In this document: one piece after another, positions 2 to 38,660 of the stretch
Layout of the letters: the number at the start of each line of letters is the position of its first letter
Position numbering within the stretch: the first letter of the stretch is position 1
Source of the DNA: an uncultured Streptomycetaceae bacterium
GTDB lineage: Bacteria; Pseudomonadota; Gammaproteobacteria; Burkholderiales; SG8-41
DNA length: 43,076 nucleotides
Reading direction: 5' to 3'
Assembly: GCA_964498105.1 (NCBI GenBank)
Contig: CAZCGD010000566.1
Coordinates: 1 to 43,076 of the forward strand
Translations under genes and position numbers: made by a program
Notes under the pieces: model-generated
Told to the model about the DNA's origin: nothing
Seen by the model: the letters and a program-made list of their open reading frames with translations, nothing else
The model's database searches: none

Positions 2-250
2 AGCCTCGGCGTGCGCCCGACCGTGAAGCAGGGCGGGGCGCCGGTGCTGGAAGTGCACGTGCTCGATTTCAGCGGCGATCTCTACCGCAGCCACGTGCGG
101 GTGGAGTTCCTGCACAAGTTCCGGGACGAGGAGAAGTACGCCGACCTCGCCACGCTCACGCGCAAGATCGCGCTTGATGTCGAAAACGCGAGAGCCTACT
201 TTAGCCGCCAAGACGCCAAGACGCCAGGGAAAACGAGTGTTAAGTTTTGA
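2..250 (+). CDS. ribF: Riboflavin kinase/FMN adenylyltransferase RibF, C-terminal fragment (5' end outside the window)
   Basis: The frame is open from the window edge to TGA 248-250. The translation GAPVLEVHVLDFSGDLYRSHVRVEFLHKFRDEEKYADLATLTRKIALDVENARAYF looks like the riboflavin-kinase C-terminus. The ribF-ileS-lspA-ispH order is conserved. Confidence 0.8.
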   Translation, partial: SLGVRPTVKQGGAPVLEVHVLDFSGDLYRSHVRVEFLHKFRDEEKYADLATLTRKIALDVENARAYFSRQDAKTPGKTSVKF

Positions 251-328
251 GTGTTTAGTTTTGAGTAAAAGACGGCCGCAAGAAAGCATGCTGCAACTCA
301 ACACTCAAAACTAAAAACTCAACACTGA
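236..328. repeat. AT-rich imperfect hairpin element, family A copy 1 (heptamer words TTTGAGT / ACTCAAA)
   Basis: Left arm agtgttaagttttgagtgtttagttttgagt (236-266). Right arm actcaacactcaaaactaaaaactcaacact (298-328). About 26 of 31 positions are complementary by hand alignment. The left arm overlaps the last ribF codons and its TGA. Confidence 0.75.
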
Positions 329-337
329 TCTTCTTCA

Positions 338-3214: not shown

Positions 3215-3698
3215 GAACCGGCTCATGACGAAGTGGCTCGCACTCTCGGCGCTGCTGGTGGCGGCGGACCAGATCACCAAGGTCGTCGCCGTCCAGCAAC
3301 TCGCCCTGAACCAGGTCGTCGCGGTGACCCCGTTCTTCAACCTGGTGCTGGTGTACAACGCCGGCGCTGCTTTCAGCTTCCTGTCGGACGCGGGCGGCTG
3401 GCAGCGCGGCTTTTTCATCGGCATCGCGCTCATCGCCTCGGCGTGGATCGTCACCCTGCTGCGCCGCTACCCGCACCAGCGCCCGTTCGCGCTGGCGCTG
3501 TCGCTGGTCCTGGCCGGGGCGGTCGGCAACGTTATCGACCGGGTGCTGCACGGGGCGGTGATCGATTTCCTCGATTTTCACGCGTTTGGCTACCACTGGC
3601 CCGCCTTCAACGTCGCGGACTCCGCCATCACGTGCGGGGCGGCGCTGCTGATCTGGGACGCGCTCGTCCCGAGACGAGGGACGAGGGACGAGGGATGA
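3207..3698 (+). CDS. lspA: Lipoprotein signal peptidase (signal peptidase II)
   Basis: The translation has [16 protein letters not shown] and NVIDR...VIDFLDF motifs and four hydrophobic segments. ATG 3207 overlaps the ileS stop (ATGCGTAA). TTG 3183 and ATG 3225 are alternative starts. Confidence 0.9.
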
Positions 3699-3708
3699 GC
3701 GACGAGGG
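3663..3708. repeat. Heptamer tandem repeat (ACGAGGG x5, 3674-3708) with an upstream complementary octamer CTCGTCCC (3663-3670)
   Basis: Direct reading: acgaggg acgaggg acgaggg atgagcg acgaggg. The lspA TGA (3696-3698) lies inside unit 4. The repeat encodes the tail RRGTRDEG. Confidence 0.8.
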
Positions 3709-4672: not shown

Positions 4673-4809
4673 TGCCGGCGCTCGGCGCCGGCACCGCGAC
4701 CTCCGAACCCGTAGTAGCAAGTATTCCGCAACGTCGCGTCGGTCGCTTGCCCATCTCCGGGGTCAGATCCCCAACTGAAGTTGGGGCCCCTCTTCCTCCC
4801 TCCGGTGTG

Positions 4810-8798: not shown

Positions 8799-9832
8799 GG
8801 CCGGTCCCTCCTGCCGGCGGGATTCACGATCCGCGCCGTCGCGGTGTAGACGTGCCGGCGGTAGCTGTCGTTCGGCGGTCCCACGGTGATCGCATTGCCT
8901 GCGGCATCGGGTCCCAGAGAGTAGGTCTTGGTGTCGCTGTAGCCGGGCGAGCGATCCAGGCTCCGCGCCAGGACGTGGAGCTGTGCGGTCACGACGTTGG
9001 ACCAGTTGTTGACTGCCGTGCACACGGTGCAGCCGCCGTAGGTGTAACTGGTCGGGTCGGCCGTGTACGCATCCGGCTGGCCGTCGCCGTCGTTGTCGAT
9101 GCCGTACACGATGTTCATCTCCTCGATTCCTTCGACCAACGGTACCTGCGCCATCGTCGAGCCCGTCAACTCCAGCCGCATGAGGGTGGGAATGTTCTGG
9201 CCCGCGCGATTGTTGGCGCTGATGAAATAAACGTTGACCACGTACTCGCGCAGCGCCGCAGGCGTGGTGCAGTCCTTGCGCGTCAGCGGGAACGCCGTCG
9301 TGCCGAACAGCCCCACGACGGTCGGGGTCGTCTCGGTGTTGCACAGGGAGGACTGCACGTACGGCTTGCCGGAAATCGTGGCCTCGCAGCCCGCGACGCC
9401 CGCGGCGCACGTCTTGACGCGCCGTACGACCAGTATGTCGGTATTCGCCTTGATGTCCGGCGGCACGCAGGCCGGCGCCCCGAAGCCGCCGTCGTAACCC
9501 TGGACGTGGATGGGCATGGCCGCTGCCCACTCCGCCGGCACGGTCGAGCACGGGTCGGGCAGCGCCGCGGGGGCCGCGAGCGCCGCTACGTTGGCCTCGC
9601 CGTAGTATCCTGCGACCCGCAAATCGTCGGAGAGCAGTTCCACGGCATAGCGCGCGTTCTCGATCTGACGGCTGCTGCGCTCGAGCTCGCCGCGCGCCGA
9701 GCTTGCGTTCGAGAACACGACAAGGAGGGTCGCCAGCAATATGAAACCGATCGCCATCGCGACCATGAGTTCGACCAGCGAGAAGCCGTCCGCGCGCGCG
9801 CGCGCGGAAAGCACCCGCTGTCGGAAATTCAT
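8795..9832 (-). CDS. pilW: Type IV minor pilin PilW (module 1)
   Basis: The prepilin leader and cleavage motif is MNFRQRVLSARARADG|FSLVELMVAMAIGF, with Glu at +5. It is about 345 aa, PilW-sized. An alternative ATG at 9847 would overlap the pilV stop (ATGA). Confidence 0.8.
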   Translation of the reverse strand: MNFRQRVLSARARADGFSLVELMVAMAIGFILLATLLVVFSNASSARGELERSSRQIENARYAVELLSDDLRVAGYYGEANVAALAAPAALPDPCSTVPAEWAAAMPIHVQGYDGGFGAPACVPPDIKANTDILVVRRVKTCAAGVAGCEATISGKPYVQSSLCNTETTPTVVGLFGTTAFPLTRKDCTTPAALREYVVNVYFISANNRAGQNIPTLMRLELTGSTMAQVPLVEGIEEMNIVYGIDNDGDGQPDAYTADPTSYTYGGCTVCTAVNNWSNVVTAQLHVLARSLDRSPGYSDTKTYSLGPDAAGNAITVGPPNDSYRRHVYTATARIVNPAGRRDRP

Positions 9833-9843
9833 GGCAGCGTGCC

Positions 9844-10434
9844 TCATGGCGTCACGCACAGCCCGGTGGTTGGGTCGTTCTGCAGGCAGCCGATCGTGAC
9901 GCGGGCGATCAGGGCGCGCCGTGTCTGCTCGTCGCCATACAGTCCCTGACCGCAAATGGTGGAGGCGGGCGCCACGGTGCGCACCATCCCCTGCCACGTC
10001 ACGGCGATCACGAACTCGCGCGGCATGGTGGCGACGACGTTGGCGATGCAGCCGCGCGCGCCGATCATCCCGCCGGCCGACTGCCCGCTCGCCGTGCTTT
10101 CTGCCGTGCCGAGCAGCGCGTTGTTCCACTGGCAGAGGTCGAGCGCGGCGCTGGTGAGCCCGGTGCAATCCTGCACCGCGTTGCCGGTGCCCAGCGCCCC
10201 GGCGGTGGCGTAGTTCACCGCGTTGTTGCGGTTGGCGTTGACGCGATCCACGATGTCCTGAAGCAGCAGGATCGCGTGCGACCGGTGGTACGACTCGGCC
10301 TGCGCCAGATGCATGCGCGCCTGCATTCCCGAAACGCCGAGAAGACCGAAGGTGAGGATCACGACTGTGATCAGCACCTCGATCAGGGTGGCGCCGCGCC
10401 CGATTTTATCCGGACGATTCTGTAGCTTGCGCAT
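9844..10434 (-). CDS. pilV: Type IV minor pilin PilV (module 1)
   Basis: MRKLQNRPDKIGRG|ATLIEVLITVVILTFGLLGV is a prepilin N-terminus with Glu5. ATG 10434 overlaps the upstream stop (ATGA). Confidence 0.8.
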   Translation of the reverse strand: MRKLQNRPDKIGRGATLIEVLITVVILTFGLLGVSGMQARMHLAQAESYHRSHAILLLQDIVDRVNANRNNAVNYATAGALGTGNAVQDCTGLTSAALDLCQWNNALLGTAESTASGQSAGGMIGARGCIANVVATMPREFVIAVTWQGMVRTVAPASTICGQGLYGDEQTRRALIARVTIGCLQNDPTTGLCVTP

Positions 10435-10961
10435 CAGAAGCACCTCTCCTGCTTCTGCACCGGCCGGCCGCTCAAATCGATGGTGATGCAGCGCGCATGC
10501 TGAACCTGGCCGCCGTTCGCCATGAGGCTGATCGAGGTCCCGCCGGTGGTGACGCGCCCGGCGCCGTTGAAGGTCACGCTCCCCGGACCGGAGATGATGA
10601 CCTTGGGCGTCCGGTCCTGGCGTCTCACCACCTCGCCGCTGGCATCGGAAATGGTCCAGCCGTCGGACCAGTTTCCTCCGCTGGGGGCTATGGTGACCGT
10701 GGTATTGCGGGTGACCGCTTCGCTGCGCGCCAGTACCAGACCCGCGAACACGTCGAAGCTCGCGGTTTTCACCCCCTGCGCCAGGATGATCTCGCGGAAG
10801 CTGGGGGTCGCGAGACCGATCAGGATCACCATCACCGACACGGTGACCATCGTCTCGGTGATCGTGAATCCGCGCGCGGTGGCCGGTGAGCGCCGGGCGC
10901 TGCGCCGCGCACTTGCCGGACGAGCCTGCTGTGGGCGCGAGTGGTACATCATGGCTACCAT
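10434..10961 (-). CDS. fimU: GspH-domain type IV minor pilin (FimT/FimU type, module 1)
   Basis: The sequence ...SPATARG|FTITETMVTVSVMVILIGLATPSF is followed by a GspH-like body (ARSEAV...VTI). The leader is unusually long (27-31 aa). There is no in-frame ATG/GTG/TTG nearer the cleavage site. Confidence 0.75.
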   Translation of the reverse strand: MVAMMYHSRPQQARPASARRSARRSPATARGFTITETMVTVSVMVILIGLATPSFREIILAQGVKTASFDVFAGLVLARSEAVTRNTTVTIAPSGGNWSDGWTISDASGEVVRRQDRTPKVIISGPGSVTFNGAGRVTTGGTSISLMANGGQVQHARCITIDLSGRPVQKQERCF

Positions 10962-24484: not shown

Positions 24485-24487
24485 GAC

Positions 24488-26013: not shown

Positions 26014-26027
26014 ATAATTATAATTAT
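26014..26027. promoter_or_regulatory. Perfect 14-bp AT palindrome (candidate operator) in a divergent promoter region
   Basis: ATAATTATAATTAT equals its own reverse complement. It lies in the 334-bp gap between the acyl-CoA dehydrogenase (-) and Bug (+) genes. Confidence 0.3.
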
Positions 26028-26120
26028 TTTTTTCCGGCAGATCAGTGCCTTGCCCCTGAGTCCAATAAGTGGAACCATGTCCCCGCGGCATTATCACTCC
26101 AATAAAGCGAGGAGGGTTCC

Positions 26121-27095: not shown

Positions 27096-27124
27096 TAATG
27101 AGTGCGCGGCAGCATGCCGCGCAT

Positions 27125-27769: not shown

Positions 27770-27787
27770 GATCAACACGCCAAACGC

Positions 27788-28035
27788 AACCGCCGATGAA
27801 CGCCGATGAACGCCGATATTTCAATTTCGGAAATGATCATCAAGGGAGAATCACATTCGCGTTTATCTCTCGGCGACCCACGGCTGTACGGCTTGCTCGA
27901 AACGGGCATTGGCAACTCGGGGCTAATGTATGGGCTTGAACCGAAGGCAGCCTCAGATCAACGCCGATGGGAAACGAAACAACACCGCAGATGATTTTCA
28001 GATGGATTTGCGTTTATCTGCGTTCATCGGCGGTT
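27788..28035. mobile_element. 248-bp MITE-like element with 16-bp perfect terminal inverted repeats
   Basis: AACCGCCGATGAACGC (27788-27803) is the exact reverse complement of GCGTTCATCGGCGGTT (28020-28035). The left end carries the tandem CGCCGATGAA CGCCGATGAA CGCCGATA. The interior is AT-richer and has no convincing ORF. Confidence 0.55.
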
Positions 28036-28050
28036 TCCTGGTTTCGCTTG

Positions 28051-29094
28051 TCACTCGCAGGGAACGCTCTCGCGCCACAGGCCGAGCGCTTTCTGCGCCG
28101 GGCGGTCGGAGAAGCTGAACAGCACGGAATCGGCGTCGGCCTCGTGCTGCACGCGGCTCCACGACGGCGCGACGAACACGTCCTGTTCCTGCCATTCGAG
28201 GACTTTGCCGTCGATGCGGGTGCGGCCGCGGCCCTCGACCGCGCAATACACCGTGCCGTCGGTCGTACGGTAAGGCTTGCCGCGGAAATCTTTATGCAGG
28301 AGCTGGACGAACGCGCCGATGGTGGGCATTGGGTAGCCGCCGGTCGCGGGATTGGAGTACTGGAGCTTCAGCCCGTGGCAGGGGTGCATATCGCCGCCGC
28401 GGCGCAACTGCTCGAGCGCTTCGCGCGTGCGCGCGTAGGGATAGCAGAACACCGGCGTCGTCAGCGATTGCGGCGTGTAATCGGCCGGCAGCATGTTGGC
28501 GCCGTAACGCGCCTGGGAATCGCCCTCCGGCCGCGCAATGGGTTGCATCGCCTCCGGGTAGCGCTCCATGAATCCCGCGTCGAAGAACGCCACCAGTGGG
28601 ACGTCCAACCCGTCCAGCCACACGACCGGGTCGCTGCCGGGGTTGCCGTGATCGTGCCAGGTCCAGGAGGGCGTGATGATGAAATCGCCGGGATGCATCG
28701 TCACGCGCTCGCCGTCCACAGCGGTGTAGGCGCCCGTGCCTTCGACGATGAAGCGCAGCGCGGATTGCGTGTGCCGGTGACTGGGCGCGACTTCCCCGGG
28801 CAGGATCAATTGCAGCCCGGCGTAGAGCGAGTGCGTGATGGATGAGGCGCCGCGCAGCCCCGGGTTTTCGAGGACGAGGACGCGCCGCTCGGCTTCCTCC
28901 GCCGAGATCAGTTCACCGGCTTCCATGATGAAAGAGCGCACGTCGCGGTACTTCCACAGCGCCGGCACGCAGGGCGTGGCGGGTGTCGGCGGCACCAGCG
29001 CGCCCAGCACTTCCCACAGCGGCGCCATGTCGTGCCGGGATAGGCGGTCGTAGAACTCGCGGCGCTTGGGGTTTTGGGCGGGGGCGGTGGACAT
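28051..29094 (-). CDS. Gentisate 1,2-dioxygenase-type bicupin
   Basis: From ATG 29094: MSTAPAQNPKRREFYDRLSRHDMAPLWEVL...HRHTQSALRFIVEG.G..T.V.GE....PGDFIITPSWTWHDH, the typical GDO cupin signature. The 836-aa ORF-track call was trimmed. Confidence 0.85.
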   Translation of the reverse strand: MSTAPAQNPKRREFYDRLSRHDMAPLWEVLGALVPPTPATPCVPALWKYRDVRSFIMEAGELISAEEAERRVLVLENPGLRGASSITHSLYAGLQLILPGEVAPSHRHTQSALRFIVEGTGAYTAVDGERVTMHPGDFIITPSWTWHDHGNPGSDPVVWLDGLDVPLVAFFDAGFMERYPEAMQPIARPEGDSQARYGANMLPADYTPQSLTTPVFCYPYARTREALEQLRRGGDMHPCHGLKLQYSNPATGGYPMPTIGAFVQLLHKDFRGKPYRTTDGTVYCAVEGRGRTRIDGKVLEWQEQDVFVAPSWSRVQHEADADSVLFSFSDRPAQKALGLWRESVPCE

Positions 29095-29105
29095 GGCTGC
29101 TGCTA

Positions 29106-30356
29106 TTATGCCTTCGCTTTCGATGATAGGGATTCCTTGTCGTAGCCCGCGACCCGCGCATAGCCGTGGGTGAGCGCGGCCAGCTCCTCGCGGCTGATCA
29201 CCTCGTTGATGTCCTTGAACGGCTGGTCGCCGGTCCTCAGGTAGACCTCGCGCAGGACCGCGTCGGGCGGGTTCTTGCGGTTCATCCTGACGATACTGGC
29301 CGTCGCCTCGAGCCGCTGCGCTTCGTACTGCTTCAGCGCCGCCACCGGGTCGCCCTGGGAACTCAGGCATTCCGCGAGGGCCCTGGCGTCGAGGATCGCC
29401 TGGCCGGCGCCGTTGGAGCCGCGCGGCACCATCGGGTGCGCCGCGTCGCCCAGCAGCGTGATGCGGCCGTGGCTCCACCGCGGCAGCGGTTCCTGGTCCA
29501 CCATCGGGTACTCGAGGATGGCCTCGGCGTTGCGCATCATATCCGCCACGTCGAGCCAGTCGAACTTCCAGTCCTCGAAGACGTGGATGAAATCCTCCAG
29601 CTTGCCGGCGCGGTTCCAGTCCCGGCGCTTGTAATCTGGGGTGTAGAACTCGCCGACCCAGCTCACCAGCTGGCGGCCCTGCGCGTCGCGCTGGTTGCGG
29701 ATCGGATAGATGATCACTTTGCCGGATTCGAGCCAGCCGGCGCGCACGAAGCTCTCGCCCGTGAGGAACGGCTTCCACCAGGTCGCGCCGCGCCACATGT
29801 TGACGCCCGAGTAGATCGGGTCGCCTTCGTCCGGGTAGAACTGCTTGCGGAGCACCGAATGGATGCCGTCGCAACTCACGACGGCTGCGCCGCGTTGCGG
29901 CGGCAGTGCCTCGCCGGTGACGGTGCTGGCGAAATGGACCGTCACGCCGCCGCCGTCCTGCTCTGCTCGCGTGGAGCGCCAGCCGGTGACTATCCGGTCG
30001 GCGCCGATGCGGTTCCTGCACGCATCGAGCAGCACCACTTGCAGGTCGCCCCGGTGGATGGAGAACTGGGGCGTGTCGTAGCCGGCGTGGCGGCCGCAGG
30101 GCTCGCTGTAGATCAACTGGCCGTGGCGGTTGTAGAAAACCGCTTCGCGTGTCGTCACCGCGACCTTCTCCAGCGCGTCCAGCAGCCCGAGCGCCGCGAG
30201 TTCTTTCGTCGCGTGAGGGAGGAGGTTGATGCCGAGGCCCAGCCCCTTCACCTCCGCGGCCAGCTCGTAGACGCGGCACGGGATGCCGGCCCGGTGCAGG
30301 GTCAGGGCCAGCGTCAATCCGCCAATGCCGGCGCCGATGATGATGACGTCGTTCAT
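29106..30356 (-). CDS. Class A FAD-dependent aromatic monooxygenase (PhzS / salicylate-hydroxylase-like)
   Basis: MNDVIIIGAGIGGLTLAL (GxGxxG), GADGIHS-like CDGIHSVLR, and LLGDAAHPMVPRGSNGAGQAILDA. By eye the overall pattern is close to PhzS. There is an 11-nt gap to the dioxygenase gene. Confidence 0.85.
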   Translation of the reverse strand: MNDVIIIGAGIGGLTLALTLHRAGIPCRVYELAAEVKGLGLGINLLPHATKELAALGLLDALEKVAVTTREAVFYNRHGQLIYSEPCGRHAGYDTPQFSIHRGDLQVVLLDACRNRIGADRIVTGWRSTRAEQDGGGVTVHFASTVTGEALPPQRGAAVVSCDGIHSVLRKQFYPDEGDPIYSGVNMWRGATWWKPFLTGESFVRAGWLESGKVIIYPIRNQRDAQGRQLVSWVGEFYTPDYKRRDWNRAGKLEDFIHVFEDWKFDWLDVADMMRNAEAILEYPMVDQEPLPRWSHGRITLLGDAAHPMVPRGSNGAGQAILDARALAECLSSQGDPVAALKQYEAQRLEATASIVRMNRKNPPDAVLREVYLRTGDQPFKDINEVISREELAALTHGYARVAGYDKESLSSKAKA

Positions 30357-30430
30357 CGCGGTCTATTTTATCCAACGGACACGCTAGAATCGCGCTTTCC
30401 GAAACCGGAGCGGACCGGGCGGGCAGGAGC

Positions 30431-31690
30431 ATGGAAAACGTGGTGATCGTGGGTGGCGGCATCTGCGGATTGACGCTGGCCCTCAACCTGCACGCGCGGG
30501 GCATTCCGTGCCGGGTGTACGAGCGCGCCGGGGAAGTCAGGGAGCTGGGGGTCGGCATCACCTTGCTGCCGCACGCGATGCGCGAGTTCTCGGCGCTCGG
30601 CCTGCAGGAACGGCTGCTGACGGCGGGGGTCGAGAACCGGGAGAGCTGCTTCTACAACCGCTTCGGCCAGTTCATCTACAAGGAGCCGCGCGGCACGTTC
30701 GGCGGCTATCCCTTTCCCGAGGTCGGCATACACCGCGGCCGGCTGCACCGCATCCTGTACCAGGCGGTGCTCGAGCGCCTCGGGCCGGAGCGCGTGCTGA
30801 TGGACCGCCAGTGCGCGCGCGTCGAGCAGGACGGCGCGTGCGCCGCGGTGCATTTCACGGAGACCTCCACCGGGCGTAGCCTCGCGCCGGTACGGGCGCG
30901 GGCGGTGATTGCGTGCGACGGCATCAACTCGGTGCTGCGCCGGCAGTTCTACCCGGACGAGGCCGTGGCATTCGCGGGGATCAACACCTGGCGCGGCGTG
31001 ACTCGCCGCAAGCCCATCCTGACCGGCCGCAGCTTCATGCGCATCGGCTCCATCCTGACCGGCAAGCTGGTGGTCTACCCGATCATCGACGACGTGGACG
31101 GGGAGGGCAACCAGCTCGTCAACTGGATGGCCGAGATCAAGCAGGACACCTGCGAGAAGAACGACTGGAACAAGCCCGGCGACAGCGCCGGCTTCATCCA
31201 CCTCTACGAGGGCTGGAAATTCGACTGGCTCGACGTGGGCGAATTGATCCGCAGCGCCGAGACCATACTGGAGTACCCGATGGTGGACCGCGACCCGGTG
31301 GGGCGCTGGACGTTCGGGCGTGTCACGCTGGCGGGCGACGCGGCGCACCCGATGTATCCGCGCGGCTCGAACGGCGCGGCGCAGGCGGCGATAGACGCGC
31401 GTTCTCTCGCCGAATGCCTGGCAGCGGCGCGGGACCCGGCGGAGGCGCTCGCCGCCTACGAGCAGACCCGGCGCGAGACCACCGCGAAGATCGTGCGCGC
31501 CAACCGCGCGCACCCGCCGGACTTCATCAACATCAAGGTCGAGGAACTGGTGGGCGACCAACCCTTCGACGATCTTGACCGCTACATCACCCAGGCCGAG
31601 CTGCACGCACTGTCCGAGAACTACAAGCGGATCGCGGGCTTCTCCCTGTCCGACGTTTCCGGCGCGCCGCGACCGACGGCAAACAGCTGA
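30431..31690 (+). CDS. Class A FAD-dependent aromatic monooxygenase, paralog of 29106-30356
   Basis: MENVVIVGGGICGLTLAL, CDGINSVLR and LAGDAAHPMYPRGSNGAAQAAIDA. AGGAG lies before the ATG. The protein is colinear with the divergent neighbour along its whole length. Confidence 0.85.
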   Translation: MENVVIVGGGICGLTLALNLHARGIPCRVYERAGEVRELGVGITLLPHAMREFSALGLQERLLTAGVENRESCFYNRFGQFIYKEPRGTFGGYPFPEVGIHRGRLHRILYQAVLERLGPERVLMDRQCARVEQDGACAAVHFTETSTGRSLAPVRARAVIACDGINSVLRRQFYPDEAVAFAGINTWRGVTRRKPILTGRSFMRIGSILTGKLVVYPIIDDVDGEGNQLVNWMAEIKQDTCEKNDWNKPGDSAGFIHLYEGWKFDWLDVGELIRSAETILEYPMVDRDPVGRWTFGRVTLAGDAAHPMYPRGSNGAAQAAIDARSLAECLAAARDPAEALAAYEQTRRETTAKIVRANRAHPPDFINIKVEELVGDQPFDDLDRYITQAELHALSENYKRIAGFSLSDVSGAPRPTANS

Positions 31691-31762
31691 CGGGCGCTTT
31701 GCGCGCCGCTGTATACTTCACCGGCTCCACCGCAACCAACTTTCTTAAAGCCCCCGCAATTT

Positions 31763-33196
31763 ATGGCCACCAACACCCGCCCCAACCCTGACAAGGCTCT
31801 CCTGCAGATCGCCGACTACGTCGACCGCTATCCGGTCAAGAGCCCGCTCGCGCTGGAAACCGCGCGACTGGCATTGATCGACAGCCTCGGCTGCGGCTTC
31901 GAGGCGCTGTCCTATCCCGCGTGCACCAAGCTGCTGGGGCCGGTGGTGCCGGGGACCCTCGTGCCGAACGGCGCGCGCGTGCCGGGCACGTCCTACACGC
32001 TCGACCCGGAGCGCGCGACGTTCAACATCGGCGCGCTGGTGCGCTGGCTCGATTTCAACGACGCCTTTTACGGCGCGACGGTGATCCACCCGTCGGACAC
32101 CTTCTGCGGCATTCTGGCGGTGGCCGACTGGTTGTCCCGCACGCGCGCGGCGCAGGGCCAGAAGCCGCTCACCATGCGCGACGTGCTGGAGTCGGCGGTG
32201 AAGTCCTACGAGATCATGGGCGGGCTCGCGCTCGAGAATGGGTTTTCCGCGGTCGGGCTCGATCACACCATCCTGGTGAAGATCGCCATCACGCCGGTGG
32301 TGACGAAGCTGCTTGGCGGCACCCACGAGGAGATCGTCAACGCCCTGTCGCAGGCGTGGGTGGACGGGCACGCGCTCGCGACCTTCCGCCGCAAGCCCAA
32401 TACCGGCCCGCGCAAGTCGTGGGCGGCGGCCGACGCGGCGAGCCGCGGCGTGCGCCTGGCGTTGATGGCGGTGAAGGGCGAGATCGGCTGTCCGTCGGCG
32501 CTGACCGCGAAGACCTGGGGCTTCTACCACGTGCTGTTCAAGGACAGGCCGTTCAGGTTCCAGCGGCCGTACGGCACCTACGTCGTGGAGAACGTGCTGT
32601 TCAAGCTGCCGTACCCGACGGCGTTTCATGGCCAGAGCGGGGTCGAGGCGGCGATCAAGCTGCACCCGCTGGTCAAGGACCGGCTCGACGACGTGAAGCG
32701 CGTCGAAGGCAAGTGCCACAACTCGACGATGGTGATCCTTGACAAGTCGGGGCCGCTCCATAACCCGGCGGACCGCGACCACTGCATGCAGTACATGATG
32801 GCGATCGGCCTGATCTACGGCACCATGACCGCCGAGCACTACGAAGACCACATCGCGGCCGACCCGCGTATCGACGCGCTGCGCGCGAAGATGCGGCTCT
32901 CCGAGTCGGCCCAGTACGAGCGCGAATACCACGATCCCGCCAAGCGCACCAATGCCAACTCGATCCAGGTATTTTTCAAGGACGGCAGCAAGACGCCGCT
33001 GTCCGAGGTGCTGTATCCGCTGGGCCACCGCCGGCGGCGCCAGGAGGGCATCCCGGCGCTGATGGAGAAATTCGAGCGCAACGTCGCGCGCGTGTTTGCC
33101 GCCAAGCAGCGCGACGCGATCCTCAAGGCCTGCCTCGACCAGAAGCGGCTGGAGGCGATGCCGGTGAACGAGTTCATAGACCTGTTGGTTGTTTAA
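31763..33196 (+). CDS. prpD: 2-methylcitrate dehydratase
   Basis: 477 aa. By eye it is colinear with E. coli PrpD: DSLGCGFEALSYPACTKLLGPVVPGT, IHPSD, GLDH..LVK, RKSWAA.DA.SRGVRLAL, NPADRDHCMQYM, PLGHRRRR.EGIP. Confidence 0.85.
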   Translation: MATNTRPNPDKALLQIADYVDRYPVKSPLALETARLALIDSLGCGFEALSYPACTKLLGPVVPGTLVPNGARVPGTSYTLDPERATFNIGALVRWLDFNDAFYGATVIHPSDTFCGILAVADWLSRTRAAQGQKPLTMRDVLESAVKSYEIMGGLALENGFSAVGLDHTILVKIAITPVVTKLLGGTHEEIVNALSQAWVDGHALATFRRKPNTGPRKSWAAADAASRGVRLALMAVKGEIGCPSALTAKTWGFYHVLFKDRPFRFQRPYGTYVVENVLFKLPYPTAFHGQSGVEAAIKLHPLVKDRLDDVKRVEGKCHNSTMVILDKSGPLHNPADRDHCMQYMMAIGLIYGTMTAEHYEDHIAADPRIDALRAKMRLSESAQYEREYHDPAKRTNANSIQVFFKDGSKTPLSEVLYPLGHRRRRQEGIPALMEKFERNVARVFAAKQRDAILKACLDQKRLEAMPVNEFIDLLVV

Positions 33197-33200
33197 ATTC

Positions 33201-33304
33201 AATAGACAGGATTAACAGGATTAACAAGATTCAAATAATGAAAATAAGTTTTTGTTTCGTTTTTCTTGATCTAATCCTGTAAATCTTGTAAATCCTGTCC
33301 ATTC
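33201..33304. repeat. 104-bp AT-rich hairpin element, family B copy 1 (9-nt words ACAGGATTA / TAATCCTGT)
   Basis: It begins aatagacaggattaacaggattaacaagatt and ends ctaatcctgtaaatcttgtaaatcctgtccattc, followed by a T-run (tttggttttttt). It starts 5 nt after the prpD TAA. Confidence 0.8.
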
Positions 33305-33325
33305 TTTGGTTTTTTTGGAGAAGGC

Positions 33326-34204
33326 ATGAATCACACTGAACAACGCAAGCGGCTGCGCGCGGTATTCGCGGGCAACCAGTGCATTTCCCCGGCGAGCGTC
33401 TACGACGGCCTGTCGGCGCGCGTTGCCGAGTCGGTCGGCTACGAGGTCGGCATGCTGGCCGGGTCGGTCGCGGCGAATACCACGCTGGCGGCTCCGGACC
33501 TCATCGTGCTGACCCTGACCGAGTTCGCCGACCAGGTGCGGCGCATCATGCGCGCAAGCAGGCTGTCGCTGATTGTCGACGCGGACCACGGCTACGGCAA
33601 CGCCCTCAACGTCATGCGCACCGTGGAAGAGCTGGAGCACGCGGGCGTCTCCGGCATGAGCATCGAGGACACGGCGCTGCCGACGCGCTTCGGCCAGACC
33701 GAGGGCACCGACGAGCTGATTTCCCTCGACGAGATGGTCGGCAAGTTGAAGGCCGCAGTGGCCGCGCGCCGCGATCCTTCGACGGTGATCCTCGGCCGCA
33801 CCGCGGCGCTCAAGGTGGAAGGCACGGAGGGCGCGGTGAGGCGGGCGAAGGCGTTCGCGGCGTGCGGCGTGGACGCGGTGTTCGTGGTCGGCGTGGAGTC
33901 GGTGGACCAGGTGCGGGCGGTCCGCGAGGCGGCGAAGCTGCCGATCATGGTCGGGTCGGCGCCGGCTTCGATCAAGCGCGATGATTTCGCCGCCGCCGGC
34001 GCGCGCGTGCTGTTGCAGGGCCACCAGCCGGTGGCGGCGGCGGTGAAGGCGGTGAGGGAGGTCTACACCCATCTCTTCAACGGCGGCGCGCCCGCGGACC
34101 TGAAGGACAAGATCGCTACGGTGAAGGAAATGGACGCGCTGGTGAGCGGCGATGCCTACAAGAAATGGCAGATGGACTACCTGGGACTGAAAGGCAAAGG
34201 ATGA
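33326..34204 (+). CDS. PEP mutase/isocitrate lyase superfamily protein, PA4872-type oxaloacetate decarboxylase-like
   Basis: The core is DADHGYGNALNVMRTVEELEHAGVSGMSIEDTALPTRFG. From my memory of both sequences, it is much closer to P. aeruginosa PA4872 than to PrpB. RBS GGAGAAGG is present. Confidence 0.75.
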   Translation: MNHTEQRKRLRAVFAGNQCISPASVYDGLSARVAESVGYEVGMLAGSVAANTTLAAPDLIVLTLTEFADQVRRIMRASRLSLIVDADHGYGNALNVMRTVEELEHAGVSGMSIEDTALPTRFGQTEGTDELISLDEMVGKLKAAVAARRDPSTVILGRTAALKVEGTEGAVRRAKAFAACGVDAVFVVGVESVDQVRAVREAAKLPIMVGSAPASIKRDDFAAAGARVLLQGHQPVAAAVKAVREVYTHLFNGGAPADLKDKIATVKEMDALVSGDAYKKWQMDYLGLKGKG

Positions 34205-34342
34205 GGGATACAAACAAGCACCAAGTCTCAAGCACCAAATTACAAACAAGCACCAAGTCTCAAGCACTAAGCACCAGACGTTTGGAGATTGGAATTTGAA
34301 TTTTGTTTGTGATTTGGCGTTTGGGATTTGGGATTTGAGATC
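34205..34342. repeat. AT-rich repeat element, family C copy 1
   Basis: The word AAGCAC(C/T) occurs 5 times, within a 26-bp direct repeat ACAAACAAGCACCAAGTCTCAAGCAC x2. The heptamers TTTGGCG TTTGGGA TTTGGGA TTTGAGA follow. The element starts at the base after the TGA. Confidence 0.8.
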
Positions 34343-34473
34343 TATGACGGATGAGGGGTTCGGCTACCGGCCTGCAGAATTAGTTGCCGGTTTGATGCTG
34401 TCATGGCACATTGCGGACGGCGGCCCGGGCAGCGCTTCCCGGGGCGATTAATGCGTCAAATAGGAGCATCCAC

Positions 34474-35037
34474 ATGACCGGCTTGTTCGACCTGGCAACC
34501 AATTTCGGCTTCGCGGCACTCGTGCTGGCGTGGACCGTTCAGGGCGTCGTGGAAATCCGGACGCAGGGGCTTCGACCCAGGCCTGTCCTCAAGTGCGTTG
34601 GGGCGATTACCCTCTACGGAGCGCTCGTTGGAGCCTGGTTTTACGTTCACCTCATCACCAAGGATCTGGTTGTCAGGATGGACTCGTTTCCCGCGGTATC
34701 GATAACGGGGAACTGGGGACAGGAGCTTGCTTCGGACAAGCGCACCGAGTACACGCGCATCCTCGCGAGTTCCGTGTTCGTGAACTCCGGAAAATTCATA
34801 CAATTCATCGACCAGGACAGCGTCCTGAAGCCGTATGCGCCAAGTGAAGCTGACGTCAGGCAGCGCGACGCATGGCTGCAAAACAAACACGAGTCGCTGT
34901 CCGACGCTCAGGCATACAAACAGTTCGCGCTGGTATGGCTGGCGGTCCTTCCGCTGGGCCTGGTGGTGGCCCTGTTCTGGCCGGGTGGACGACAGACGCC
35001 GCGCTCCAGCCCTCCGACGAAAAAGCGCGCGCCGTAA
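34474..35037 (+). CDS. Hypothetical membrane protein (about 3 predicted TM segments)
   Basis: ATG 34474 has AGGAG 7 nt upstream. Hydrophobic segments are FGFAALVLAWTV, VGAITLYGALVGAWFYV and FALVWLAVLPLGLVVALFW. GC is lower by eye. I recognise no family. Confidence 0.5.
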   Translation: MTGLFDLATNFGFAALVLAWTVQGVVEIRTQGLRPRPVLKCVGAITLYGALVGAWFYVHLITKDLVVRMDSFPAVSITGNWGQELASDKRTEYTRILASSVFVNSGKFIQFIDQDSVLKPYAPSEADVRQRDAWLQNKHESLSDAQAYKQFALVWLAVLPLGLVVALFWPGGRQTPRSSPPTKKRAP

Positions 35038-35197
35038 CCGGGCCGTGGTTCTGCCGAGACGCCAAGGCCGCCAGGAAAAAACATTTTAGTTTTCGGCGGT
35101 TTCCTAAAATAGCGGCCCGGGTTATTTTTACGGGTGAAAACAGGGCCTGTGCAGGCCGGTATAGACGGTAGAACGCAGTGCCCTGCCACTCCCACCG

Positions 35198-35239
35198 CTT
35201 GACCCATAACTTGACCGATACTTGACCCATCGGTAGTAT
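35198..35239 (+). promoter_or_regulatory. Three CTTGACC direct repeats with a candidate sigma70 promoter just upstream of fic
   Basis: CTTGACC occurs at 35198, 35210 and 35221, a spacing of 12 and 11 bp. TTGACC (35211-35216), a 17-nt spacer and TAGTAT (35234-35239) form the candidate promoter. The fic ATG is at 35247. Confidence 0.3.
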
Positions 35240-35246
35240 CGGCGGC

Positions 35247-36248
35247 ATGAGCTACCGTCCGCAGTTCACGATTACGCCCGGGTTGCTGGCGCGCGTGGAG
35301 GTCATCGCGGTACTGCGCGAACGCATCCAGGGCGCGGCGGTGCAGGTGGCCTGGATCCCCGCCTTGCAGAAGGACACGCGCGCCCGGAACGCGCATTCGT
35401 CCACCGCAATCGAGGGCAACCCCCTTACGCTGGAGCAGGTGCGCGCCGTCGAGGAGGGGCAGCCCCTGACCTTGCCGACGCGGGCGCGCCGGGAGGTCGT
35501 TAATTACTTCGCGGCGCTGCGGCATATCGAAAAGCACGCCGCGAAAAGGCGAATCGTGCACGAAGACGTGCTGCGCTTGCACGCCATCATGGCCGGAGAG
35601 GTGATGGATCAGGGCGAAGCGGGCCGCTACCGGACGATGCGGGTGCGAGTTGGTCTCTATTTCCCGCCGCCGCCGGAGGAGGTCTCGGGACTGATGTTCG
35701 ATTTCCTCGAATGGTGGAGCGACAAATCGCGGACGCTGTCCCCCGTGCTGAGTTCGGCGATCGTGCACTACCGGTTCGAAGCCATCCACCCGTTCGCGGA
35801 TGGCAATGGCCGGACGGGCCGCGCGCTCGCCTTGTGGGAGCTCTACCGACGCGGATTCGATACGCACCACATCTTCTCCGTGGACGAGTTTTTCTGGGAG
35901 GACCGCCCGCGTTACTACGCGGCGCTGCAGGCGGTGCGGCAGCAGGACGAGGACCTCACGGCCTGGCTCGAATATTGCACGGAGGGACTTCAGCAAACGC
36001 TGGAGCGTGTCTGGCAGCGGGTCCAGCAGCTCTCCGCATCGCGCGGCCGGCTGCAGCTGGTGCTCCGCCCGAAACAGGAACAACTGCTGCAGTTGTTGCG
36101 GTCGCGGGGCAGCCTGAGCCCGCGCGAAATCTGGGATGGCCTTGAAATCTCCAAGCAGGGAGCGATGGATTTGCTTCGGCCGCTTCTCAAGGCCGGATTG
36201 ATCAAGCGGGTGGGCACTTTGAAAAACGGGCGCTACGTACTCAAATGA
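35247..36248 (+). CDS. Fic/Fido-domain protein with an N-terminal inhibitory motif and a C-terminal winged-helix-like tail
   Basis: The Fic motif HPFADGNGRTGR lies at 35787-35822. The inhibitory (S/T)xxxE(G/N) motif STAIEG lies at 35400-35417. Confidence 0.85.
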   Translation: MSYRPQFTITPGLLARVEVIAVLRERIQGAAVQVAWIPALQKDTRARNAHSSTAIEGNPLTLEQVRAVEEGQPLTLPTRARREVVNYFAALRHIEKHAAKRRIVHEDVLRLHAIMAGEVMDQGEAGRYRTMRVRVGLYFPPPPEEVSGLMFDFLEWWSDKSRTLSPVLSSAIVHYRFEAIHPFADGNGRTGRALALWELYRRGFDTHHIFSVDEFFWEDRPRYYAALQAVRQQDEDLTAWLEYCTEGLQQTLERVWQRVQQLSASRGRLQLVLRPKQEQLLQLLRSRGSLSPREIWDGLEISKQGAMDLLRPLLKAGLIKRVGTLKNGRYVLK

Positions 36249-36378
36249 CGCCCAGGAACAACGGCAAGCGTCATGCGACCCCGTAGTCGCTGAACGGCGA
36301 ACTGATTCCTTATCTGCGCGAACTGAATTCGCGTGTAGTAATATTTGTCGATCGAGAAGGCACTGAAAAGGAAATCGT

Positions 36379-36822
36379 ATGCGCCCCGCATTCACCAAAG
36401 ATCCGCTGTTCAGGAAAGGCCTGAAGATCCGCAAGCAGGTGGTCGGCGCCGAGTACGTCGAGCGCCGGCTGGCCGCGGCGAACCAGTACACCTGGCCGTT
36501 CGAGGAGTTGGCCACCAAGGTTGCCTGGGGCATGGTGTGGGGGCGGCCGGGCCTGTCGCGCAAGACGCGCAGTTTCCTCAACATTGCCGCGTTGACGGCG
36601 ATGAACATGCGGCACGAACTGAAGCTCCACATCCGCTCCGCGCCGCGTAACGGCCTCACGCGCAAGGAGATCGCCGAGGCGCTGCTGCATTGCACGGTTT
36701 ACGCCGGCGTGCCCAAGGGCCTGGATGCGCTGCGCTTGATGCAGGAAGTGTTCGACGAAGTCGATGCCGCGAAAAGAACGAGCAACAATCGAACCGCCAA
36801 GACTCCAAGAAATACAAAATAG
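36379..36822 (+). CDS. Carboxymuconolactone decarboxylase (CMD) family protein
   Basis: VWGRPGLSRKTRSFLNIAALTAMNMRHELKLHIRSAPRNGLTRKEIAEALLHCTVYAGVPKGLDA is the PcaC/CMD pattern. The low-complexity tail and the TAG stop run into the family B element. Confidence 0.85.
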   Translation: MRPAFTKDPLFRKGLKIRKQVVGAEYVERRLAAANQYTWPFEELATKVAWGMVWGRPGLSRKTRSFLNIAALTAMNMRHELKLHIRSAPRNGLTRKEIAEALLHCTVYAGVPKGLDALRLMQEVFDEVDAAKRTSNNRTAKTPRNTK

Positions 36823-36921
36823 ACAGGATTAACAGGATTTACAAGATCAAGAATCAAGAACAGGTTAGTGTTTGCGGTTTCTGTTTTTGAATCTTGTTAA
36901 TCATGTAAATCCTGTCTATTC
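36818..36921. repeat. 104-bp AT-rich hairpin element, family B copy 2
   Basis: It has a perfect 13-bp terminal inverted repeat AATAGACAGGATT / AATCCTGTCTATT. Length and ends match copy 1. The element supplies the TAG stop (36820-36822) of the CMD gene. Confidence 0.85.
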
Positions 36922-36933
36922 GTTGTTTCGACG

Positions 36934-38532
36934 ATGAAGAGGCCGCTCGAAGTCCTCAGGCTCTACCCGGAGCACGACTACACTTTGAACGGCGCGTTCG
37001 AAAGTCGGGCGCAGCGCGATCCGCAGCGCCCGTTCATCCTGTTCGGCGGGAAAACCTGGAGCTGGGCGGAGTTCGGCGCGGCGGTCGAGAAGGCGGCGCG
37101 CTTGCTCGTCGCGCGCGGGATCAAGAAGGGCGACCGCGTTGGCGTGCTGGCGCGCAACGATATCGGCCACGCGTTGCTGCTGTTTGCCTGCGCGCGCAGC
37201 GGCGCGATCATGGTACCGAGCAATCCCGAGTTCGGAGTGCAGGAGGCGGGCTATGTCTTCAAGCACGCGGGCGTGTCCGTGGTCGCCTGCAACGAGGACG
37301 TGCTGCCGGTGGTACGCGAGGCCTGCGACGGAATCACGCCAGAACCGTGGTTTATGTTGTTCGACGGCCGGTCCGCCGGCGCGCCGCATTTCTTCGATGA
37401 GATCGCGCGCGCGCCGGACGTGGAGATGCCGCAGCCGGCCGGCCCCGACGATACCGTGCTCATCATCTACACCTCGGGCACCACCGGTTTTCCCAAGGGG
37501 GCGATGCACAGCCAGCGCAGCTTCGTCCTGGCGGGCGAATCGAACCTCTCGCGCCTGTGGCTGCAGCCGGAAGAGCGCATGATGGTGGTGCTGCCGATGT
37601 TCCACGTCAACGCGCTGTTCTACTCGACCGCCGGGGCGCTTGCCGCGGGCTGCACGCTCGCGCTGATGCCGCGCTTCTCGGCGTCCGGGTTCTGGGACGC
37701 AGCGGTCGAGTACGGCGTGACCCAGGTCAACATTATCGAGGCGATCGGCCGCATCCTGGCGCGGCGGCCACGCTCGGAGTTCCGGCCCGGGCACAAGATC
37801 ACCAAGCTCTACGGCGCGCGCGCCGATATCGTTGCGACGTTCCGCGACGAGTTCCACATCGAGCATCTGCTCGGCGGCTTCGGCATGACCGAGATTCCGG
37901 GCGTGTGCTGCAATCCCTTCGAGGGGCCGAACCAGCAGGGCACGATGGGGCCGGCCGGGCGTCATCCCGACCCGAGCCGCCAGTGGGCCGAATGCAAAGT
38001 CGTCGACGACGACGGCAACGAGGTCGGCGCCGGCGTGGCAGGGGAGCTCTGGGTCAGGCACCCGATCGTCATGCAGGGCTACTTCCGCGACCCCGAGCAG
38101 ACCCGGGCGGCGTTTCACGACGGCTGGTTCAAGACCGGGGATCTGGTGTCGCGCGACGCGGACGACTATTTCACCTTCGTGTCGCGCAAGAAGGACATCA
38201 TCCGCCGCCGCGGCGAGAACATCGCCGGCGCCGAGATCGACCGCGTCATCCAGTCGCACCCCGGCGTGTTCGAAGTGGCGGCGGTGCCGGTACCCTCCGA
38301 ACTGGGCGAGGACGAGATCCTGGTTGCGATCGTGCCCAAGCCGGGCGTGACGCTGACGCCGCAGGACATCGCCCAGTGGTGCTCCGAGCGCCTGGCCGCG
38401 ATGAAGGTGCCGCGGTTCGTGCTGTTCGTCAACGACCTGCCGCATACGCCGACGCACAAGGTCGCCAAGCACGTGCTGAAGGCCGACAAGACCCTCAGAG
38501 CCCGCGCGGTCGACTTGCAAGCTGGGTCTTGA
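36934..38532 (+). CDS. AMP-dependent acyl-CoA synthetase/ligase
   Basis: It has the ANL motifs IIYTSGTTGFPKGAM, GWFKTGDL and KKDIIRRRGENI. The protein is 532 aa. Confidence 0.9.
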   Translation: MKRPLEVLRLYPEHDYTLNGAFESRAQRDPQRPFILFGGKTWSWAEFGAAVEKAARLLVARGIKKGDRVGVLARNDIGHALLLFACARSGAIMVPSNPEFGVQEAGYVFKHAGVSVVACNEDVLPVVREACDGITPEPWFMLFDGRSAGAPHFFDEIARAPDVEMPQPAGPDDTVLIIYTSGTTGFPKGAMHSQRSFVLAGESNLSRLWLQPEERMMVVLPMFHVNALFYSTAGALAAGCTLALMPRFSASGFWDAAVEYGVTQVNIIEAIGRILARRPRSEFRPGHKITKLYGARADIVATFRDEFHIEHLLGGFGMTEIPGVCCNPFEGPNQQGTMGPAGRHPDPSRQWAECKVVDDDGNEVGAGVAGELWVRHPIVMQGYFRDPEQTRAAFHDGWFKTGDLVSRDADDYFTFVSRKKDIIRRRGENIAGAEIDRVIQSHPGVFEVAAVPVPSELGEDEILVAIVPKPGVTLTPQDIAQWCSERLAAMKVPRFVLFVNDLPHTPTHKVAKHVLKADKTLRARAVDLQAGS

Positions 38533-38536
38533 CCTC

Positions 38537-38660
38537 GGGAAATCCCAAATCCCAAACTCCAAATCCCAAACAACTCACAGCTGGAAGCTCCAAACGCTTG
38601 GAACTTGATGCTTGGTGCTTGGAGTTTGTTTGTAATTTGGTGCTTGAACTTTTGGTGCTT
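38537..38660. repeat. AT-rich repeat element, family C copy 2 (inverted relative to copy 1)
   Basis: Heptamers AATCCCA AATCCCA AACTCCA AATCCCA are followed by ...cttggtgcttggagtttgtttgtaatttggtgcttgaacttttggtgctt. By hand the reverse complement of copy 1 aligns along its length. It fills the convergent gap between the ligase and cytochrome c genes. Confidence 0.8.

Follow-up and report, generated by a model that had tools for sequence, protein, structure and literature searches.

Tandem-word hairpins behind the stop codons of a GC-rich metagenome contig: probable members of dispersed, ORF-less foldback families

The window analysed here, a metagenome contig taken at its full length of 43,076 bp, has a GC content of about 65% and carries, among other genes, ribF, ileS, lspA, ispH, genes of a type IV pilus, TctC, PrpD and a tRNA-Thr gene, a gene content indicative of Betaproteobacteria/Burkholderiales. 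Nine loci in it had been read in a preliminary description as AT-rich hairpins with arms of tandem words of 7-10 nucleotides (nt), placed mostly at the ends of genes, and all nine were found where that description had put them. For the present analysis, arms were located by Tandem Repeats Finder (TRF) and their pairing by an inverted-repeat search; compared loci outside the window are a series of stretches denoted by L numbers (L001, L015, L060 and so on) and a contig denoted P0047. The repeats of the window, grouped into families A, B and C and the elements S1 to S3, are as follows.

206-226, + strand: half-array of 2.6 CGCCAAGA words inside the 3' end of ribF, without an inverse partner (TRF); full hairpins of these words occur in L048 and L060.
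235-328, no strand assigned: hairpin A1, TTTTGAGTG-type against ACTCAAAA words; encloses the ribF stop codon TGA (248-250), with the ileS start 9 nt beyond.
3673-3708, + strand: S1, tandem (GACGAGG)x5; codes for the C-terminal tail and stop codon (TGA 3696-3698) of lspA (Peptidase_A8); not a significant hairpin.
17638-17800, no strand assigned: S2, GC-rich hairpin of (GGTTCCG)x4.4 against (GGAACCC)x4.7; 8 nt past the pilW stop (- strand), overlapping the start region of the next pilus gene.
24488-24593, no strand assigned: A2, hairpin of family A in the gap where the HtrA-like gene (stop 24482-24484) and the acyl-CoA dehydrogenase gene converge.
27788-28035, no strand assigned: S3, 248 nt, arms of CGCCGATGAA words, perfect 16-bp termini and an interior of about 190 nt without an open reading frame (ORF); between the stop of a cupin gene (28051) and the start of a GST gene (27778).
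33201-33304, no strand assigned: B1, family B hairpin, (ACAGGATTN)x3 ... (NAATCCTGT)x3; begins 4 nt past the PrpD stop, with the PEP-mutase start 21 nt beyond its end.
34196-34362, + strand: C1, composite with its hairpin at 34205-34342; 5' arm of AAGCACC words, 3' arm of TTTGGGA words; splits a direct GGGATGA array at GGGAT^GA.
35063-35085, + strand: half-array of CGCCAAGG words just past the stop of the ORF at 34411-35037.
36818-36921, no strand assigned: B2, family B hairpin; a CMD-family gene uses its terminal TAG (36820-36822) as stop codon, and the start of the AMP-binding gene follows 12 nt on.
38537-38660, - strand: C2, inverted copy of family C in a convergent gap; the strand that folds better is sense for the cytochrome c gene (stop 38666-38668).

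Both arms of A1, A2, B1, B2, C1, C2, S2 and S3 were recovered by TRF and joined by the inverted-repeat search. The architecture ascribed to all nine loci, in which tandem 7-10-nt words face their reverse complements in a long imperfect hairpin, was thus present in eight of them; the remaining locus, 3663-3708 (S1), is a tandem array only. Minimum free energies were compared with those of 200 dinucleotide-preserving shuffles on both strands, and the eight hairpins folded at z values from -2.1 to -9.5 on one or both strands. The values for the + and - strands were -4.1 and -5.0 for A1, -3.9 and -6.0 for A2, -6.0 and -7.4 for B1, -7.8 and -9.5 for B2, -7.2 and -3.7 for C1 (energies of -53.4 against -35.8 kcal/mol), -2.1 and -3.2 for C2, -3.4 and -3.2 for S2, and -4.8 and -3.1 for S3. 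No significant fold was found for S1 (z -0.8 against shuffles). An exact word-pair detector gave six matches in the real window and 0-2 in each block-shuffled window; four of the six were listed elements, and two were probable false positives in GC-rich coding sequence.

Some particulars had to be revised. AT-richness applied to six loci (GC 0.28-0.44) and not to S1 (0.70), S2 (0.66) or S3 (0.51). The words of S2, given as ten against four, were counted as about 4.5 per arm, and the 13-bp terminal inverted repeat attributed to B1 and B2 has one mismatch (CCATT) at the right terminus of B1. Half-arrays of CGCCAAGA words at 206-226, about 35063-35085 and about 36795-36815 had been overlooked. 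No ORF was found in the elements, as the preliminary description had stated. By TRF, the tandem period is 7 in A, C, S1 and S2 and 9-10 in B and S3. Tracts of three G residues occur only in C and its GGGATGA flanks, and not in A, B, S2 or S3.

The position of the elements relative to genes was more regular than the earlier count of seven loci at stop codons had implied, as all nine lie 0-16 nt from one. The stop codons of ribF, lspA and the CMD-family gene are inside elements, and that of the PEP-mutase gene (TGA 34202-34204) abuts C1. Gaps that bear an element contain little beyond it and a ribosome-binding site, and no element was present in any of the five divergent (promoter) gaps of the window. 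The suggestion that elements contribute terminal codons to genes was borne out: the tail of RibF derives from CGCCAAGA and the first A1 word, and that of LspA from GACGAGG x5. The elements have rewritten the ends of these housekeeping genes. Heptamer arrays whose word contains a stop triplet (GGGATGA, TTTTGAGT and similar) bring a stop into every reading frame over 21 nt, since a period of 7 is not divisible by 3. This could explain the tolerance of period-7 words with TGA or TAA at gene ends, an explanation which fails for GGGATTT, a word without a stop. At S2, the 1771-amino-acid ORF on the - strand begins, if the listed ATG at 17729 is used, with an Arg/His/Pro-rich N-terminus that does not resemble protein, and a pilX-like N-terminus (…GAVLFIALIVL) is found in another frame after codons from the S2 arm (17638-17729, - strand). 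The gene start and boundary in this region need to be called again.

Stable hairpins at the 3' ends of genes would be expected of ordinary factor-independent terminators, and the T-rich words of A2 do come after a GC hairpin on the - strand. We nevertheless regard this explanation as very improbable. Most elements are found within apparent operons, between genes of one direction and a few nt short of a start codon; none was among the six terminator-like sites found in 23000-40000; and in B copies the hairpin tends to be preceded by a T-run and followed by an A-run, opposite to the order in a terminator. The window has GC-rich hairpins elsewhere. One at 21297-21330, 3' of the tRNA-Thr gene, consists of an A-run, a GC hairpin and a T-run (AAAAAAAGATCGCCGGACGGCGATCTTTTTTT) and reads as a canonical bidirectional intrinsic terminator, and others lie 3' of ispH (4673-4693) and TctC (27103-27123). 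Since other gaps use GC-rich hairpins and the one at 21297-21330 looks canonical, the word hairpins are not simply the terminator type of this organism. Only the tRNA-Thr gene passed the gathering threshold of Rfam in the window; at a relaxed threshold the elements gave E values of 0.2-0.9 to plant microRNA-precursor and small RNA or antisense RNA models, far below threshold.

Orthologous loci were also compared. Many metagenomic relatives of the PEP-mutase-like protein (33326-34204) were found at 85-91% identity, and five of their contigs were read or mapped. The gap between PrpD and the PEP-mutase gene, which in the window holds a family B element, contains a CACAGAG-word hairpin in L001, a 42-nt remnant of the right end of such a hairpin in L126, and a B right-hand arm with unrelated DNA in L128; in L130 it is without an element (31 nt), and in the P0047 contig it is 11 nt long. 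The gap 3' of the PEP-mutase gene is occupied by family C in the window and in L001, by a GAAACGG-word hairpin in L130 and by three different direct arrays in L126, and the gap between the GST and cupin genes by S3 in the window, by family B in L001 and by a GTGAACG-word hairpin in L128. At the A2 site, a diverged family A copy with different word numbers was found in L001. In these relatives, with proteins 86-90% identical, the gaps were either empty or filled by other word families, and the elements are not ancient conserved terminators. The pattern is one of rapid gain, loss and replacement at fixed hot spots.

The same region varies in gene content. The PEP-mutase and AMP-binding genes are adjacent in the P0047 contig and L130; a CMD gene lies between them in L126 and directly follows the PEP-mutase gene also in L128/L129; in the window the interval (34205-36921) holds orf208, a Fic gene and the CMD gene; and L128 has an additional orf200 before the PEP-mutase gene. 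Every such junction bears a word hairpin or half-array, as if the hairpins were marks of recombination or cassette boundaries. The 302-nt gap at 5871-6174 of L128/L129 holds, besides a B right arm, the palindrome GTCATTCCCGCGAAGGCGGGAATC, which we take to resemble the ATTCCC-N8-GGGAAT (dRS3-type) repeats of Neisseria; this suggests that another repeat class occupies the same gaps.

Collection scans for families B and C used exact patterns, and their counts are lower bounds. The right-arm pattern of family C, GATTTGGMGTTTGGGATTTGG, was found in at least 120 metagenome stretches with GC contents of 0.37-0.71. Among the stretches listed, the usual form was (AAATCCC)n...(GGGATTT)n, and the subtype of the window, with its 5' arm of AAGCACC words, was present in 12. 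In these 12 stretches tblastn gave no match to the PrpD, PEP-mutase, AMP-binding and cytochrome c proteins of the window. Nine copies were aligned, namely C1, C2, the L001 copy and those of six of the 12 stretches (L173, L174, L233, L238, L253 and L275). At least seven distinct loci are represented, and column identity is 86% with the loop counted, which makes family C a discrete dispersed family. It starts with RMAAACAAGC, and eight of the nine copies (the exception is C2 of the window) split a direct (GGGATGA)n array in the phase GGGAT^GA without duplication. An unbroken GGGATGA array is present in L001.

The consensus fold of family C is a stem of 46 pairs in which 64 G·U cells stand against 3 A·C cells when summed over the sequences (about 15 against 3 sites). 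Compared with its complement, the sense strand gains 4-20 kcal/mol in folding (13-20 in 9 of 11 copies), and in about nine of ten independent loci, C1 and C2 included, the flanking genes lie on that strand. These comparisons suggest that the structure is kept in the RNA of the transcribed strand, although a C-to-T bias linked to transcription could contribute to the strand asymmetry. For family C there are indications that selection acts on an RNA hairpin of the transcribed strand; the terminator function proposed earlier was not supported.

The same observations bear on the idea that the elements are sites at the level of DNA, that is, cruciforms, G-quadruplexes or arrays for nucleoid, gyrase or ribbon-helix-helix-type proteins, which would serve topology or regulation and have no role in RNA. 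Most families are symmetric palindromes, with equal folding of the two strands, AT-rich arms would be extruded easily in a GC-rich genome, the GGGAATC arrays of Xanthomonas form G-quadruplexes (PMC4692102), and C is flanked by GGGATGA arrays. The stem of C, however, needs G·U pairs on one strand, and that strand follows gene direction. In relatives one site can hold different words, which is evidence against binding that is specific to the site, and in the cassettes described below arm words are translated as protein tails. We therefore attach little probability to a role confined to DNA.

Family B was searched for in one genome per species with the 18-mer GACAGGATTAACAGGATT, common to the three B copies then known. 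At least 144 matches were obtained in at least 120 stretches, against a chance expectation of about 17 for the whole collection, as estimated from its stated size. The complementary arm was found downstream in 88 of the 144 matches listed, and 77 of those are elements 53-223 nt long. The hosts belong to Verrucomicrobiota, Kiritimatiellia, Acidobacteriota, Chloroflexota, Bacteroidota, Gamma-, Beta- and Deltaproteobacteria, Planctomycetota and Firmicutes, and include a Methanoperedens metagenome-assembled genome (MAG); B hairpins are also present in the cultured isolates Thioalkalivibrio denitrificans ALJD, Thiobaca trueperi DSM 13587 and Spirosoma terrae KCTC 52035 and in the closed MAG chromosomes OY969111.1 and OY970345.1. 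The 18-mer occurred in 31 IMG/VR stretches, several of them with clear hairpins, and no match was found by blastn in PLSDB plasmids. B copies keep their words and vary in spacers, word numbers and loops. Two subtypes were seen, AATR-GAC...GTC-YATT in high-GC proteobacteria and Acidobacteriota and TTTTW-GAC...GTC-WAAAA elsewhere. Nested copies occur in L010, L041 and L105. In L046, L063 and L022 entire B hairpins are tandemly duplicated together with flank, with periods of 98-129 nt, and local duplication therefore raises copy number. The B word strings were not found in the searched literature.

Two other origins of the B words were considered and set aside. The B word of all loci contains 11 nt, AAACAGGATTA, identical to the universal 790-loop region of 16S rRNA, but among 49 distinct words only B variants match 16S rRNA at length; derivation from universal rRNA segments was treated as coincidence because shuffled words are exceeded by a small margin, and by B variants that are not independent of one another. 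Mimicry of CsrA sites (CAGGAUG-like) would fit B only and leave the other words unexplained.

Word hairpins of this kind form a broader class. With a detector combining TRF and reverse-complement alignment, which misses C2 and gave one false positive in coding DNA, 88 were found in 54 sources covering 957 kb of compared DNA. The words CGCAGAGG/CGCAAAGA, CACAGAGG and CACGAAGA recur in unrelated phyla, and CGCCAAGA, GTTCCGR and GCAGATGAAC within the lineage. The label of singleton, given earlier to some of the loci, cannot be kept, since related contigs again contain the words of S2, S3 and the CGCCAAGA arrays. L060, which is probably a mis-binned relative and holds six elements in 8 kb, has the words of S2 and, flanking a B element, a word type similar to that of S3 (CGCAGATGAA). 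For 81 elements, gene orientation was called by the GC3-GC2 criterion (GC content at third against second codon positions), which agrees with a Pfam-based map; 55 lie in co-directional, 16 in convergent and 10 in divergent gaps, at a median distance of about 8 nt from the stop codon. The mean GC content is 0.45 for elements against 0.64 for their loci. Arm polarity is fixed within families, at 59:1 in B, 9:0 for AAATCCC..GGGATTT and 5:0 for CRCAGAG. Common descent of the copies would yield this, and selection for any hairpin would not. Telomerase-like healing of breaks or fusion of telomeres was rejected as a source; the G-rich arm is always 3' (AAATCCC..GGGATTT 9:0), the wrong polarity for fused G-strand ends, and nothing in favour of this source was found.

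If the hairpins had grown in place, by slippage and quasi-palindrome correction from a small seed, and been selected as terminators or stabilisers, no movement would be needed. Word numbers do differ between orthologous copies (A2 against that in L001), half-arrays and remnants exist, palindromy reaches into copy-specific flanks, and the PEP-mutase gene ends in GGATGA, the word expanded beside C1. As a sole explanation such growth is already strained, and we consider it improbable: the same B arms, with variant words in the same order, stand at non-homologous loci (B1, the GST/cupin gap of L001, and L060), family C is 86% identical at its seven or more loci even in the loop, and the same words cross phyla with fixed polarity.

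The proposal that the loci are non-autonomous mobile elements was thus upheld as to dispersal, C being present at seven or more non-homologous loci and B arms in many phyla; as to target-site duplications it was not, as no direct repeats were found flanking 63 B copies. This bears on the possibility that they are classical miniature inverted-repeat transposable elements, deletion derivatives of insertion sequences, mobilised by a DDE transposase for which the repeated words would be multiple binding sites. Inverted arms, small size, lack of an ORF, many copies and lineage-specific subfamilies would all suit such elements, and terminal inverted repeats are present, those of S3 being 16 bp long and perfect. 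The absence of duplications, at GGGAT^GA in family C also, and of a transposase between arm pairs nevertheless disfavours them, and they appear quite improbable. Arm pairs 450-2350 nt apart enclose ordinary genes, the sole recurrent cargo is a PD-(D/E)XK protein of 120-150 amino acids, no protein family recurs as a neighbour in 151 loci, and element ends are not sharply defined. An all-against-all BLAST of 6,586 ORFs from these 151 loci gave no recurrent neighbour gene or transposase beyond generic families.

The cargo just mentioned was found in other bacteria. In L015, a Chthoniobacterales MAG, a B pair encloses a 144-amino-acid ORF of the PDDEXK_3 / TIGR04256 "GxxExxY" family. The left arm overlaps the start of the ORF and the right arm codes for its tail, NPVNPVNPV, with which 20 of 20 close homologues sampled (72-84% identity) also end. 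The arrangement B arm-GxxExxY-B arm is located between gyrB and gyrA in L015, L282 and L283 and in the gene map of another contig; in L282 the gyrB stop is the TAG of TAGACAGGATT, as the stop of the CMD gene is that of B2 in the window. The same arms surround a cargo that is only about 56% identical between nuoC and nuoD (L285-L287), and L284 provides a third context. These cassettes have ACAGGATT words in the 5' arm, AATCCTGT words in the 3' arm and TAGAC...GTCTA termini, and B1 and B2 match the arms of L015, L282, L283, L286 and L284. The word ACAGGATT holds the AGGA core of a Shine-Dalgarno sequence, 5-13 nt before the cargo start codons in L284 and L286. About 13 of 50 diverse family members have a tail or leader that is encoded by B words (NPVNPV-type or ACAGGATT-coded). 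About 6 of the 50 have leaders of the type (Q)MNAD(E/K)R; judging from protein sequence, these would be encoded by CGCAGATGAAC words, to which type S3 belongs. In L278 another PDDEXK_3 gene is followed by a right arm of the CGCAGAGG family.

The GxxExxY family comprises about 14,000 clusters at 50% identity, and no solved structure was found for it by sequence. The predicted structure is confident (mean local confidence score, pLDDT, 88.6) and has its nearest folds in Cas4, lambda exonuclease and other PD-(D/E)XK nucleases. Of its residues, D69 and K81 do not vary and E79 hardly does. A survey lists the family as "function unknown, multiple transfers, mixed clades" (PMC3424549), and in the searched literature the few papers mentioning GxxExxY or PDDEXK_3 do not treat flanking repeats. 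No PD-(D/E)XK ORF lies between the B arms of the window, where the loops measure 15-40 nt. The B copies of the window are ORF-less relatives of the cassettes, not cassettes.

Taken together, and with moderate confidence, the loci are best read as ORF-less members of several dispersed, non-autonomous foldback families that are presumably co-transcribed, processed and able to spread. Each element consists of two inverted tandem-word arms around a variable middle and occupies the narrow, apparently tolerated space behind a stop codon. It would be co-transcribed with the host operon, and its arms would fold into a long double-stranded RNA stem, which may render the insertion harmless or even useful, either as a protector of 3' ends or as an RNase III-type site that separates cistrons or releases the cargo mRNA. 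The words may often supply a Shine-Dalgarno-like AGGA as well as the stop codon of the upstream gene, and the repetitive arms would allow copies to lengthen and shorten by slippage. Spread would be of a copy-and-paste kind without target duplication, driven either by a nuclease acting in trans, for which GxxExxY is a candidate, or by arrays of one word exchanging sequence through template switching or gene conversion. Both a trans-acting nuclease and array-guided template switching would suit the phase-exact placement of C in GGGATGA arrays.

Several observations weigh against this interpretation. No transposition event, target-site duplication or mobilising enzyme was demonstrated, and tblastn gave no GxxExxY gene or remnant in the window, S3 included. 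The gyrB-gyrA cassettes are orthologues and therefore attest conservation, not movement. When all families are pooled, folding favours one strand only weakly (33 against 22), so that the argument for RNA is established for C only, and the role of the stem as an RNase III site or stabiliser is one that we infer by analogy. The palindromy of B copies often extends into copy-specific flanks, and for this reason the ends of B elements are not sharply defined. About 12% of elements were called in divergent gaps by the GC3-GC2 criterion, where they are not clearly depleted, and families A, S2 and S1 are without known copies outside the lineage.

A wider proposal can be made tentatively, although we think it rather unlikely to hold in full. 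The word hairpins would be the abundant ORF-less form of a foldback superfamily present in many phyla, of which the GxxExxY cassette of about 450 nt would be the autonomous form; the nuclease would recognise the words or the hairpin and copy the cassette into gaps of essential operons, and the processed stem would keep the insertion non-polar.

Among known systems, the best match in architecture is to the Foldback (FB) elements of Drosophila, which have long, unequal inverted arms of tandem subrepeats around a variable or absent middle and some of which carry genes. No homology is implied, and Foldback elements differ in being eukaryotic and kilobase-sized, in having target-site duplications and in using a different enzyme. 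REP, BIME and REPIN sequences, mobilised by RAYT, are extragenic hairpins of about 100 nt that occur in hundreds per genome and in mosaic combinations and have been proposed to stabilise mRNA. Their unit is a lineage-specific palindrome of 20-40 nt with a GTAG/CGTC tag, and RAYT is a single-copy Y1 HUH transposase acting in trans. The elements described here are likewise extragenic hairpins at gene 3' ends and inside operons without target duplication, but their units are non-palindromic words of 7-10 nt of which only the pair of arrays is palindromic, and the B words cross phyla. The GTAG/CGTC tag is absent from the B termini (AATR-GAC or TTTTW-GAC) and from the start of C, and no RAYT-type domain was found among 23 scanned ORFs of the window. 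In the intervening sequences of 23S rRNA and the T7-type intercistronic RNase III sites, an insert is bracketed by inverted repeats and cleavage of the stem makes the insertion harmless. By this general comparison the likeness lies in long stems between cistrons, sometimes with a small ORF; no rRNA gene was present in any compared locus. The elements also resemble integron attC sites, as imperfect hairpins directly after stop codons whose junctions coincide with differences in gene content, but they lack R/L core sites (GTTRRRY) and an integrase, have housekeeping neighbours and have arms of tandem words.

In the searched literature, the nearest description is that of the GGGAATC arrays of Xanthomonas, followed by that of TAACTGA repeats. 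Cyanobacterial STRR sequences are heptamer repeats that occur mainly as direct arrays. TAACTGA repeats are found in Beggiatoaceae, Cyanobacteria and Bacteroidetes, where horizontal spread is suspected by a mechanism that is not known (MacGregor 2015, PMC4679880). Both share with the present elements tandem intergenic heptamers and the same word in distant phyla, but they are mostly direct arrays upstream of start codons, whereas those of the window are paired inverted arms behind stops. Such repeats had been thought unexpected in a high-GC genome, an expectation contradicted by Xanthomonas, which has the same architecture: 70-75 of about 185 GGGAATC arrays per genome are convergent inverted pairs capable of forming a stem-loop, 89-93% of arrays are intergenic at a mean of 28 nt from the upstream ORF end, and their length is not conserved between species (Rehm et al. 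2015, PMC4692102). The likeness thus extends to the high-GC proteobacterial host, the tandem heptamers, the intergenic position near the upstream ORF end and the convergent pairing. Unlike the window, Xanthomonas has a single G-rich word, read as G-quadruplex-forming, and its description does not include families, mobility, constraint at the level of RNA, a link to an ORF or distribution across phyla (PMC4692102). The words of the window differ from GGGAATC, although GGGATTT and GGGATGA of family C share the GGGANTN type, and with periods of 9-10 B and S3 fall outside a strict definition as heptamers.

If the foldback interpretation is correct, up to a few per cent of some soil-bacterial genomes, a figure extrapolated from the eight hairpins in the 43 kb of the window and the six in 8 kb of L060, would belong to a repeat class ignored by annotation pipelines, and its members would sit where operon mRNAs are processed. 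The repeats rewrite gene ends, providing stop codons and C-terminal tails for ribF, lspA and the CMD-family gene, and they mark junctions at which relatives differ in gene content. They also link cyanobacterial STRRs, the G-rich heptamer pairs of Xanthomonas and cross-phylum heptamers to GxxExxY / PDDEXK_3. Should the wider proposal of a superfamily hold, it would provide a function for the roughly 14,000 clusters of a family without a known role, and STRRs and the excess of heptamers in Xanthomonas would be decay products of such elements. The questions raised are whether the nuclease binds or cuts the arms and whether RNase III cuts the stems.

Two further features were noted. In L130, the downstream region 9359-10884 contains an AbiEi/AbiEii toxin-antitoxin pair, a MazG-like gene and an SLFN-like helicase, which together form a defence-type islet beside conserved metabolic genes. 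In the window, three direct repeats of 11-12 nt, of the CTTGACCCATAA type, lie at 35198-35230, just upstream of the Fic/HTH gene (35247-36248), and may be a candidate operator.

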